DNA from: a virus | Strand: one strand, 5' to 3' | DNA length: 44,448 nucleotides | Virus genome (UHGV): UHGV-1376603 | Part shown: piece after piece, positions 27,139-38,379 of the stretch | How positions within the stretch are numbered: position 1 is the stretch's first letter | Layout of the letters: every line of letters begins with the position of its first letter | Notes under the pieces: generated by a model | What the model saw: the letters and a program-made list of their open reading frames with translations, nothing else | The model's database searches: none | Told to the model about the DNA's origin: nothing | Translations under genes and position numbers: made by a program

Positions 27139-27214
27139 TGGTGCTGGTTGACGGAATCGAACCGCCGACATCCTGCTTACAAGGCAGGCGCTCTACCTGC
27201 TGAGCTAAACCAGC
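27139..27214 (-). tRNA. tRNA-Thr (anticodon UGU)
   Basis: Reverse complement GCTGGTTTAGCTCAGCAGGTAGAGCGCCTGCCTTGTAAGCAGGATGTCGGCGGTTCGATTCCGTCAACCAGCACCA folds as a 76-nt cloverleaf: 7-bp acceptor, D-arm GCTC/GAGC, anticodon stem CCTGC/GCAGG with loop CTTGTAA, T-arm GGCGG/CCGTC, encoded CCA. Confidence 0.85.
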
Positions 27215-35642: not shown

Positions 35643-35719
35643 AGAATAAAACCTTAGTTGTATTTAGTCAACAACCATTTTCGTTTGCCGCTATAAAACC
35701 ATGGTTGTAAATTGAGAAG
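35643..35719. promoter_or_regulatory. OR-like region: divergent PR (for cro) and PRM-like promoter giving near-leaderless cI, with palindromic operator candidates
   Basis: PR on the minus strand: TTGACT (35666-35671 rc), 17 nt, TATTCT. Palindrome CAACCATGGTTG at 35696..35707. TAAATT at 35708..35713 lies 7 nt before the cI ATG. A second palindrome GTTGTATTTAGTCAAC is present. Confidence 0.5.
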
Positions 35720-36409
35720 ATGAAAACGACACTTGCAGAACGATTAAGAGAAGCCAGAAAGGCTGCCAGCATGACCCAGAAGACTCTGGGAGATGTTGTT
35801 GGAGTTAGTCAGGCTGCGATCCAGAAGATTGAAACTGGAAGGGCTGCTCAGACCACAAAATTGCTCGATATAGCCAAGGCTTTAAGGGTGAGACCTGAGT
35901 GGCTTTCTTCGGGAACTGGCGCCATGAGGGCTGATGGTGAAGATGACAAGAAGCCTTCACACATAAATCATGATGTGTTCAGGGTCGACATTTTGGATCT
36001 GGCCGTCAGTGCCGGCCCGGGCATTGTGAATCAGGAGTTCGTGGAGATCCTCCACTCGGTTGAGTATGCGCCAGCGGAAGCCCGGCACATGTTCGATGGG
36101 CGTAAGGCTGAGAACATCCGTATCATCAACGTCCGGGGTGACAGCATGTCCGGCACGATTGAGCCGGGTGATCTGCTGTTCGTCGACATCAGCGTTAAGA
36201 GCTTTGACGGCGACGGGATATACGCCTTCCTGTACGACGACACTGCTCACGTCAAGCGCCTGCAGAAGATGAAGGACAAGCTGCTGGTTATCTCAGATAA
36301 CAAGAGCTATGCAGCCTGGGACCCGATCGAAAAAGACGAGATGAACCGGGTGTTCGTGTTCGGCAAGGTGATCGGCAGCATGCCGAAGACGTACAGGAAG
36401 CATGGTTAG
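35720..36409 (+). CDS. cI: CI repressor (HTH plus S24 LexA-like peptidase domain)
   Basis: N-terminal HTH QKTLGDVVGVSQAAIQKIE. C-terminal GDSM ... K autocleavage motifs (VRGDSMSGTIEPGDLL, HVKRL). Confidence 0.85.
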   Translation: MKTTLAERLREARKAASMTQKTLGDVVGVSQAAIQKIETGRAAQTTKLLDIAKALRVRPEWLSSGTGAMRADGEDDKKPSHINHDVFRVDILDLAVSAGPGIVNQEFVEILHSVEYAPAEARHMFDGRKAENIRIINVRGDSMSGTIEPGDLLFVDISVKSFDGDGIYAFLYDDTAHVKRLQKMKDKLLVISDNKSYAAWDPIEKDEMNRVFVFGKVIGSMPKTYRKHG

Positions 36410-36546
36410 TCATGCCTGTGGACTGATGCGGTGTTTGGGAGATCAGAAGCAAGGGGTTCAAACCCGTTGACGGCTCTCTAGTGATGCACAACAATGATTA
36501 TATGTAATGGGCGATTTTTAATTGATGTTGGGGTTTCGATAAATTA

Positions 36547-37263
36547 ATGGGCAAAGATAAGCGCCTGACCTTGAAACTTGATGGTACCAGTCCTGACGAG
36601 CTTACAATGTCTCGCCTTGGTAAGTATCTATCAGCTCTATCCGACCTTTATGGTTCGGTGGATGCCGTTCACTTTAAGGATGTGAGCGAAGGGTCGGCGT
36701 GCCTGAATACCTGGGTGGATAACCAAGCGTCATACGATGCAGTTATACAGCGCTCAATGACACAAGCTGCAACATCTGGAAGCTCTTACTTAAAATTAGT
36801 TTCTTTGCTGGCTCAAGATGGTTTTGGCGCAAAATTAATCAACCAGGATAAAGTTACTATTCTTGATTTTCCATCAATCAATGAAGAAGCCCCTTTCGTC
36901 GTAAGAAAGAAAGGCAAGGTGCAAGGAAAACTTTACAACGTTGGTGGCAAGGATGACTCCGCGCCAGTGAAGCTTGAGGGGGCTAACGGGGAGACATATC
37001 ACTGTGAGGCAACTCCCGCTATGGCCGCAAAGCTTGGTGCATTGCTTTTCAAGCAAATACGGGTTTCAGGTGATAGTGAATGGATTAAAAAAGATGGCAA
37101 GTGGAAGCTAAAAAAATTAATAATTGAATCCTATGAAGTCTTAGAAAGCTCTAACTTGAAGACTGCTTTTAAAGCATTGCAGAATGCTCCCGGTAATCAA
37201 TGGACAGAAGAAGATGACACTCAAGCCATCTTAAAAGCTTTAAGGGCGCTAAATTGCGAATAA
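36547..37263 (+). CDS. Unknown 238-aa protein, first gene of the cI-adjacent cargo (defence-module candidate)
   Basis: ORF in a visibly AT-richer segment directly downstream of cI. No recognisable motif. Its stop lies 10 nt inside the TTG start of the PIN gene. Confidence 0.5.
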   Translation: MGKDKRLTLKLDGTSPDELTMSRLGKYLSALSDLYGSVDAVHFKDVSEGSACLNTWVDNQASYDAVIQRSMTQAATSGSSYLKLVSLLAQDGFGAKLINQDKVTILDFPSINEEAPFVVRKKGKVQGKLYNVGGKDDSAPVKLEGANGETYHCEATPAMAAKLGALLFKQIRVSGDSEWIKKDGKWKLKKLIIESYEVLESSNLKTAFKALQNAPGNQWTEEDDTQAILKALRALNCE

Positions 37264-37799
37264 TATTCGATACTAACATTTTAGTGCAGGCCATCACAGG
37301 AATGAAAGATGGATGCAAGTTATCTAACCCTGAAAATGGCATGGAAATACCAGATCCCATGAGAAGGGTAGAAGCACTGATCGATATGGTAGAGAGCAGT
37401 GGCGGAGCCGTCATCATACCTACCCCAGTTTTAGCTGAGTATCTGGTTGGTATTGATAAGAAAGATCACCAAACGCACCTTAATTTAATTCAGAGACAAT
37501 CTTGTTTTGAGATTGCTAGCTTTGATGAAATATCTGCAATTGAATGCGCTCAGATGCCATCGATAAAAGAGTTAAAGCTTATGATGAAATCTGACACAGC
37601 AAGCAAAGTAAAATTCGACCGGCAAATTATTTCCATTGCTAAGGCGCTCAATGTAGATGAGGTTTGGACACATGACAAAGGTGTATTCAACCGCTGCAAA
37701 GAAATGGGTATAGTGGTCAAATCACTTGCAGATATAGACCCAGCCCCAGTGCAGGTACTAATTGATATGAGTCATGACGCCCCCTCAGAGCTTCACTAA
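37254..37799 (+). CDS. PIN-domain protein (putative RNase), TTG start, coupled to the preceding gene
   Basis: N-terminus RIIFDTNILVQAI is a PIN first-strand motif with the conserved Asp. Later acidic residues at PTPVLAEY, WTHDKG, FDRQ. AAGGG RBS 7 nt before the TTG. Confidence 0.6.
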   Translation: MRIIFDTNILVQAITGMKDGCKLSNPENGMEIPDPMRRVEALIDMVESSGGAVIIPTPVLAEYLVGIDKKDHQTHLNLIQRQSCFEIASFDEISAIECAQMPSIKELKLMMKSDTASKVKFDRQIISIAKALNVDEVWTHDKGVFNRCKEMGIVVKSLADIDPAPVQVLIDMSHDAPSELH

Positions 37800-37817
37800 C
37801 TTAAAAATAAAACCAGT

Positions 37818-37841
37818 ACCCGGCCACCGCGCCGGGTTTTT
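37818..37841. terminator. Bidirectional intrinsic terminator between the PIN gene and the 67-aa minus-strand gene
   Basis: ACCCGGC-CACCGC-GCCGGGT with TTTTT on the + strand and TTTTATTTTT (after 5 nt) on the minus strand. Confidence 0.55.
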
Positions 37842-37847
37842 ACTGCC

Positions 37848-38051
37848 CTACTCTTCCCTCAGCATCAGCACGTCCAGTGCCAGCTCCACAGCCAGATCTA
37901 CCTGGTCACCCTGCCACAACACCTGAATCATCTCTATCAGCGCCTCTCTTGATGGCTCGCGCTTCTCAACCAGCAGTTGCATAACCGCTATCCCGATGAC
38001 CTGCGCTATCTGCGGGTGCATTTCTGCGAAAAACTCATCCTCATTCGACAT
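37848..38051 (-). CDS. Acidic 67-aa helical protein transcribed divergently from the PL-like promoter
   Basis: AGAGGG RBS 10 nt upstream. Sequence MSNEDEFFAEMHPQIAQVIGIAVMQLLVEKREPSREALIEMIQVLWQGDQVDLAVELALDVLMLREE. No motif recognised. Confidence 0.5.
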   Translation of the reverse strand: MSNEDEFFAEMHPQIAQVIGIAVMQLLVEKREPSREALIEMIQVLWQGDQVDLAVELALDVLMLREE

Positions 38052-38059
38052 GGCGCTGC

Positions 38060-38215
38060 CCTCTTTGGCGTTTTTTTGAGCTTACCAGCACGCTTTACAA
38101 AAATAAATAACCAATAAAAACAACCAAATAAAACCATTGCAGCCATTTAAACAACTATTGTTGTTGACTATAAAACAACTATGGTTTTAAATTAACTCAT
38201 CCAAACAACACCGGC
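38060..38215. promoter_or_regulatory. OL/PL-like region: strong + strand promoter TTGACT-17-TTAAAT plus operator-like palindromes shared with OR
   Basis: TTGACT 38164..38169 and TTAAAT 38187..38192. The block CTATAAAACAACTATGGTTTTAAATT parallels CTATAAAACCATGGTTGTAAATT at OR. Half-palindrome AACAACTATTGTTGTT. AT-rich leader for the divergent 67-aa gene. Confidence 0.5.
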
Positions 38216-38271
38216 AACGCCGGGGTGAAGTCAAAACGTCCCGTTAGCCGCGATAAGGCAAAGGTGAAGAG

Positions 38272-38379
38272 ATGATCCGAGAACATGAGGTTCCTGCGTG
38301 GAACAGATTCAAGGTGAAGGTGGCACTGTTGTTGGCTTTGGTCGCATTCGTAAGCGTTCAGTGCTGGGGTGCGGTATGA
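38272..38379 (+). CDS. 35-codon micro-ORF, first in the PL operon (hydrophobic central segment)
   Basis: Translation MIREHEVPAWNRFKVKVALLLALVAFVSVQCWGAV. Its TGA overlaps the next ATG (ATGA). Confidence 0.3.
   Translation: MIREHEVPAWNRFKVKVALLLALVAFVSVQCWGAV

Follow-up and report, generated by a model that had tools for sequence, protein, structure and literature searches.

A PIN nuclease and a predicted OB-fold partner form a candidate antiphage cassette behind the repressor of a Klebsiella prophage

We find that two genes lying directly downstream from the lysogeny repressor of a lambdoid Klebsiella prophage probably constitute a lysogen-expressed, toxin-antitoxin-like abortive-infection module, a reading to which we assign a probability of about 0.6. 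The first of these (gene A) encodes a protein with a predicted OB fold that belongs to a large family without a name; the second (gene B) encodes a predicted PIN-domain nuclease. The window, by which we mean the whole stretch of 44,448 nucleotides analyzed here (UHGV-1376603), is ~94% identical to Klebsiella phage ST101-KPC2phi6.1 and its relatives over the blocks that they share.

An earlier note, made from the letters of the window alone, had described a same-strand pair of genes next to cI, the second with a TTG start behind an AAGGG ribosome-binding site and overlapping the first by 10 nt, in a segment more AT-rich than its surroundings and closed by a bidirectional terminator. All of these features were located in our analysis (Table 1). 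Gene A is separated from cI by a spacer of 137 nt, the overlap between the two genes occupies 37254..37263, and the GC content of the pair is 0.40–0.46, compared with 0.52–0.58 on both flanks. The terminator is called on both strands; its hairpin (37818..37837) has a 7-bp stem with six G-C pairs and is flanked by T/A runs. The operator-like repeats on the two sides of the pair match each other in inverted orientation (22 nt at 82% identity and 15 nt at 93%), and a promoter-like site is predicted on the OL side (38164..38193, + strand). Because such repeats are present on both sides, A and B are placed within the immunity region, with OR on one side and OL on the other, like rexAB in lambda.

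Table 1. Features of the cassette and of the surrounding immunity region (window coordinates)
Feature	Coordinates	Strand	Remarks
OR-side operator-like repeats	35646..35709		Between the cro-like gene and cI; left bound of the immunity region; direct repeat D4, inverted matches I1 and I3 to 38149..38189
cI-type lysogeny repressor, 229 aa	35720..36409	+	Pfam HTH_3 (E = 6e-18) and Peptidase_S24 (E = 4e-13); context, outside the cassette
Conserved 5′ leader of the cassette	36462..36546	+	Contains the promoter-like site 36467..36495
Gene A, 238 aa	36547..37263	+	Predicted N-terminal domain, OB barrel, and C-terminal tail; no named family
Shine-Dalgarno of gene B, AAGGG	37242..37246	+	Within the 3′ end of gene A; spacing to the TTG, 7 nt; read from the sequence
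Gene B, 181 aa, TTG start	37254..37799	+	Predicted VapC-type PIN nuclease; tetrad D6, E62, D122, D141
Bidirectional intrinsic terminator	37818..37842		Called on both strands; right junction of the cassette
OL-side operator-like repeats	38149..38189		Right bound of the immunity region; repeats D6, I1, and I3

Sequence and structure prediction agree in assigning gene B to the VapC type of PIN proteins. Its product matches the PIN family PF01850 with 26.0 bits (cut-off, 23.6 bits; E = 1.5e-5), and the same domain is present in most of its homologs. Four acidic residues (D6, E62, D122, and D141) are invariant among 35 homologs, down to 32% identity. The AF2 model (pLDDT 88, pTM 0.81) has the alpha/beta/alpha architecture of a VapC-like PIN fold, and bona fide VapC toxins are the closest structures to it; NCBI names the protein a "type II toxin-antitoxin system VapC family toxin." Gene B differs from the solved VapC proteins in that a search of its profile against PDB sequences gives no significant match to any of them, nor to any other entry, and in an extra stretch of ~20 residues between strand 1 and helix 2. 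The earlier note had read a PIN first strand and further acidic positions in this gene and had named a lack of conservation of the acidic residues in homologs as one outcome that would tell against the reading; the domain match above cut-off, the predicted fold, and the invariance of all four residues bear it out. By prediction, then, gene B would be a Mg2+-dependent ribonuclease and the effector of the cassette.

The 5′ end of gene B deserves attention. Residues 1–16 are conserved in homologs down to 32% identity (D6 is invariant, and T7, N8, and L10 are nearly so), and the TTG start of the 181-aa protein is therefore taken to be genuine. Many database records begin the gene at Met17 and so report a protein of 165 aa (P0434, found on 814 contigs). 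Since the codons lost in this way are 37254..37301, such calls remove strand 1 together with the catalytic D6: a systematic annotation error.

Gene A is strongly conserved over its full length and belongs to a family of 1,454 clusters at 50% identity, yet it is annotated as "hypothetical" in all records found. The earlier note could place no motif in it. This holds as far as named families are concerned: no Pfam, NCBIfam, or PADLOC model matches the protein, its profile has no significant match among PDB sequences, 42 diverse relatives have no Pfam match, and diverse relatives likewise have none in PADLOC. A match to some known antitoxin, structural, or regulatory family, which the note had named as an outcome that would tell against a new system, was thus not encountered in these four collections. 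The protein is not featureless, however. Its predicted layout consists of an N-terminal alpha/beta domain (residues 1–110), an OB-fold barrel of the nucleic-acid-binding type (residues 118–198), and a C-terminal helical tail (residues 204–234) in which W219 and R233 are near-invariant. A domain search found no antitoxin DNA-binding domain of the RHH, AbrB, Phd, or HTH kind, and the protein is about three times the size of a typical VapB.

We sampled 36 genome loci by way of gene A and further loci by way of gene B, including its most distant homologs. Wherever both genes are intact in the 36 loci, B directly follows A; the genome loci retrieved with gene B always have an A-family gene upstream, even for the most distant homologs; and in 58 IMG/VR viral contigs, also retrieved with gene B, an intact gene A directly precedes B wherever upstream sequence is present. 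The junction is a 10-nt overlap in all Enterobacterales loci and a gap of 0–2 nt in Marinobacter and Pseudomonas. Pairwise divergences of A and B are closely correlated (r = 0.94; none of 5000 permutations was as high), and dN/dS lies between 0.03 and 0.08 for both genes in comparisons with three homologous loci. In the Klebsiella/Raoultella group, at least 1000 contigs encode a protein identical to that of gene A, and at least 1000 further contigs carry an E. coli version. To judge by these comparisons, A and B are real genes under purifying selection that together form an obligate unit.

Some contigs carry the pair twice. Pantoea latae NZ_MWUE01000022.1 has two diverged A-B pairs ~11.9 kb apart (L006 and L010), whose A genes are 90% and 54% identical to that of the window, respectively, and IMG/VR UViG_2791355159_000004 also has two copies (L051 and L074). 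In these cases cI precedes one copy and a tail-tip J gene is the neighbor of the second, a hint that paralogous pairs can be kept side by side without substituting for each other.

Decay of the pair is one-sided. Gene B is frameshifted, truncated, or absent beside an intact gene A at five loci (L014, L024, L029, L030, and L103), and both genes are lost at a sixth (L035); an intact gene B with a broken gene A was never seen among the sampled loci. The sample of orphan A genes is small, and four of the five come from loci found by searching with gene A itself, but the pattern fits what is expected if gene B is harmful without gene A.

It is here that the main rival to a guarded toxin has to be weighed, namely a two-component nuclease in which A acts positively, by conferring specificity or by activating B. 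The OB fold of A would bring the PIN protein to a phage target (ssDNA, RNA, or an intermediate of replication); B by itself would be harmless, and both proteins would be needed for defense. That A behaves as a classical antitoxin is not assured, because it is some threefold larger than VapB and has none of the usual DNA-binding domains; it is conserved throughout, unlike short disordered antitoxins, and its predicted OB fold would suit a targeting role. There is also a precedent. DS-5, a system of E. coli found with DefensePredictor, consists of a 166-aa DUF5830/AcrIF4-like protein and a 376-aa PIN protein whose catalytic mutants D7A and E44A lose defense (PMC13092281). Deletion of the partner abolished defense and did not unleash toxicity (PMC13092281), and A could for this reason be an activator or targeting subunit. 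Like our pair, DS-5 is a two-gene system in which a PIN nuclease has a nonclassical upstream partner; sizes and architectures differ. The genomic slot and the island contexts described below serve the rival as well as they serve the toxin-antitoxin-like reading. Against it, partner-first order, translational coupling, and one-sided decay are all predicted by a guarded toxin, B is structurally nearest to bona fide VapC toxins, and DS-5 is homologous to neither A nor B. We consider a two-component nuclease unlikely on balance.

We also asked for identity with DS-5 and rejected it: BLASTP recovers the DTNIL motif and nothing more (E = 0.71), and hhalign gives a probability of 0.2%. The proteins of the window are absent from the systems tested in that study, whose supplements were searched for sequences (PMC13092281).

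The position of the pair is as informative as its composition. According to the earlier note the pair occupies the place of rexAB, and this is confirmed by the closest phage, Klebsiella ST101-KPC2phi6.1 (L005, MK448231), in which annotated RexA and RexB lie between cI and the terminator, followed by a convergent ORF of 204 nt. Homology between this phage and the window restarts exactly at the terminator. The terminator sequence, ACCCGGCCACCGCGCCGGGTTTTT, is identical in the RexAB phage, in a locus linked to a DUF927 primase (L008), and in a distant lambdoid prophage (L039), and may be a shared recombination junction for the swapping of cargo.

Two side observations concern the edges of the cassette. 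On the right, an ORF of 67 aa (37848..38051, − strand; phrog_3946, function not assigned) is oriented toward gene B from the other side of the terminator and precedes OL/PL. It is also present in the RexAB phage (8512..8715 of L005), and an Atlantibacter prophage has a 69-aa ORF in its position (5625..5834 of L039); the convergent ORF is phage backbone and not part of the cassette. On the left, a near-identical prophage (IMG/VR UViG_2778261196_000007; L048 2925..3307) has ~200 bases more in the interval from cI to the cassette, flanked by a duplicated cI 3′ end.

Similar slots are used in phages with unrelated repressors. A lysogeny repressor lies directly upstream of the pair in 37 of the 58 viral loci: 23 are of S24 type, 10 are Mnt, and four have an HTH only; several of the other 21 have their upstream sequence cut by contig ends. 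Pairs that follow a same-strand cI-type S24 repressor occur in Pantoea, Halomonas, Pseudomonas, Atlantibacter, and P. aeruginosa prophages, and an isolated phage, Pseudomonas phage Pacha, likewise has the pair after cI. Its annotation (Pacha_bin_1, PQ533669; L037 4001..5248) represents the 246-aa A homolog as a minus-strand ORF plus a short plus-strand ORF, with the PIN gene directly after it, just past the annotated cI. In Rac-like Enterobacter prophages, the repressor before the pair is of the HTH-only kind. P22-like E. coli prophages have the pair next to mnt, between mnt and gene 16, where sieA lies in P22; Mnt marks the immI region of P22-like phages. Taken together, these sequence comparisons support the view that the pair occupies an exclusion slot.

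Outside prophages, the neighbors of the pair include recognized defense genes. Wadjet JetA (E = 8e-277) adjoins it in five Pseudomonas loci, and type I restriction-modification genes hsdS and hsdM lie beside it in two loci (L012 and L021), with similar neighbors, judged by size alone, in seven more. A Schlafen-like helicase that matches Nhi and AbiO weakly and a MazG-like gene are also among its neighbors, as are a PLD protein, RelA_SpoT with NA-iREase2, the phage tail-tip J gene, and the DUF927 primase. Defense-island settings include Marinobacter and Pseudomonas. Four chromosomal contexts are not defense-like (L009, L011, L015, and L046), and the proximity to defense genes is expressed as raw counts of neighbors. 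The recurrence of the pair both after the repressors of unrelated phages and inside defense islands strengthens the defense reading.

These contexts bear on two further explanations. The pair might be a plain type II VapBC-like addiction module, which stabilizes its prophage or island by post-segregational killing and has no antiphage role. The NCBI naming of gene B, the toxin-antitoxin operon layout, and the occurrence of the pair on mobile elements and at chromosomal sites without defense neighbors would all be in keeping with this. Against this, gene A lacks any antitoxin DNA-binding domain, and defense better explains why unrelated phages repeatedly have the pair in rexAB- and sieA-type slots and why it also lies beside Wadjet and restriction-modification genes. 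Alternatively, the cassette could serve the life cycle of the phage itself, tuning the switch between lysis and lysogeny as RexA reportedly does, or processing phage transcripts. The pair does lie inside the immunity region, and RexA is reported to bias the lambda switch (PMC11077077). Such a role sits poorly with pairs located outside prophages (in Marinobacter and Pseudomonas defense islands and at chromosomal sites), with the variety of unrelated repressors that accompany it (cI-type, Mnt, and HTH-only), and with the exchange of the cassette for RexAB in near-identical backbones. Because of the defense-island contexts and the interchange with RexAB, both explanations are less likely than the main rival: we regard addiction alone as improbable and a role confined to the life cycle of the phage as very improbable. 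Addiction and defense do not exclude each other.

The cassette also appears to carry its own means of expression. Some 85 nt upstream of gene A are conserved across loci whose upstream genes are unrelated (cI, a gene of no known function, or a primase); the conserved block includes TTGACG-17 nt-AACAAT at 36467..36495, and conservation ends upstream of about 36462. Because this block is retained despite the unrelated genes before it, the cassette travels with its own promoter-like element. The earlier note had proposed expression either by read-through from PRM or from a promoter of the operon's own; the second possibility gains a conserved promoter-like block, and dependence on PRM read-through is not required. 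A search of 36380..36600 for a palindromic autoregulatory operator found one weak AT-rich 9-nt inverted repeat and nothing else. Rfam found no RNA element in 36300..38300, and there is hence no sign of an RNA antitoxin in that interval.

Comparison with known systems brings out what is familiar in the pair and what is not. Like VapBC and FitAB, it combines a VapC-type PIN protein carrying the D-E-D-D tetrad with a partner gene that comes first and is translationally coupled. The difference lies in the partner, which is a small DNA-binding antitoxin in those systems and here a 238-aa protein from a large unnamed family, in which an OB fold is predicted and RHH, AbrB, Phd, and HTH domains are absent. 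With lambda RexAB the pair shares the identical genomic slot, after the repressor, within the immunity region, and before the same terminator, but there is no relation in sequence or domains, and neither A nor B matches a PADLOC or Pfam Rex model. RexB forms an ion channel in the membrane; the effector of the cassette, by contrast, is a predicted cytoplasmic nuclease. In P22-like E. coli prophages the slot of the pair is the one that SieA has in P22. The OB-fold proteins SSB, PriB, and RPA show no sequence similarity to A, which has additional N- and C-terminal domains.

Neither protein of the window is matched by PADLOC v2. Among PADLOC candidates, PDC-M11 was considered and rejected: four of 35 gene B homologs weakly match PDC-M11A (best E = 3.8e-5), which we judge to be generic PIN similarity. 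Gene B of the window itself has no match to PDC-M11, and no member of the A family matches any PDC model.

How might such a module work? We suggest that the two genes and their flanking signals, from about 36462 to 37842, make up a self-contained cassette that moves horizontally and whose expression in the lysogen would shield the cell, and hence the prophage, from other phages. Translational coupling would ensure that A is made in a fixed proportion to B, and A would bind B and keep the PIN nuclease inactive, in the manner of an antitoxin. The FitA and VapB antitoxins insert an arginine into their toxins, as seen in the FitAB and VapBC structures. By analogy, the C-terminal tail of A, with W219 and R233, would probably reach the PIN active site, where R233 would plug the acidic pocket. 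The OB-fold and N-terminal domains would then act as the sensor. On superinfection, a nucleic-acid or protein cue from the incoming phage would displace A, titrate it, or lead to its degradation, and the freed B, now toxic, would cut cellular or phage RNA (tRNA, rRNA, or mRNA) and so abort the infection.

The window also carries a phage-borne tRNA-Thr (anticodon UGU) at 27139..27214 on the minus strand (Rfam, 74 bits; ARAGORN). This gene could be relevant if the PIN nuclease, or the defense of a rival phage, cleaves tRNA.

A more general form of the abortive-infection reading can be put forward tentatively, and we think it possible, if doubtful. The A family as a whole may consist of OB-fold infection sensors that hold a VapC-type RNase and release it in response to an intermediate of phage replication (ssDNA, SSB-coated DNA, or phage RNA). 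Temperate phages of the lambda-like, P22-like, and Rac-like groups and those of Pseudomonas would then favor the cassette, with its own promoter, as a substitute for RexAB and SieA in the slot linked to the repressor.

We found no description of the A-B pair in the literature covered; the E. coli prophage defense screen of Brenes & Laub 2025 falls outside that coverage, and a homolog may be present there. The NetFlax, domain-centric defense, and Photorhabdus toxin-antitoxin papers contain no PIN partner that matches A, and the searches turned up no homolog whose phenotype had been tested. Megablast with the cassette as query returned no match in collections of phage and E. coli genomes; the E. 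coli homologs, which are found at the protein level, are missed there because they are too diverged in DNA sequence. Defense modules built on a PIN toxin are already known. Not so the family of the partner, the fold predicted for it, or its preference for the place behind the repressor. The cassette is in this sense a solid, testable candidate for defense rather than a surprise.

If the abortive-infection reading is true, a common defense system that is absent from PADLOC v2, Pfam, and NCBIfam would be added to the catalog, and the large orphan family A would acquire a function, with an OB-fold partner joining the few known means of controlling PIN toxins. The host range of therapeutic phages in K. 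pneumoniae lysogens would be affected as well. For temperate phages more widely, the gene that follows the lysogeny repressor would be a productive place to seek new defense systems, across phages that are otherwise unrelated.
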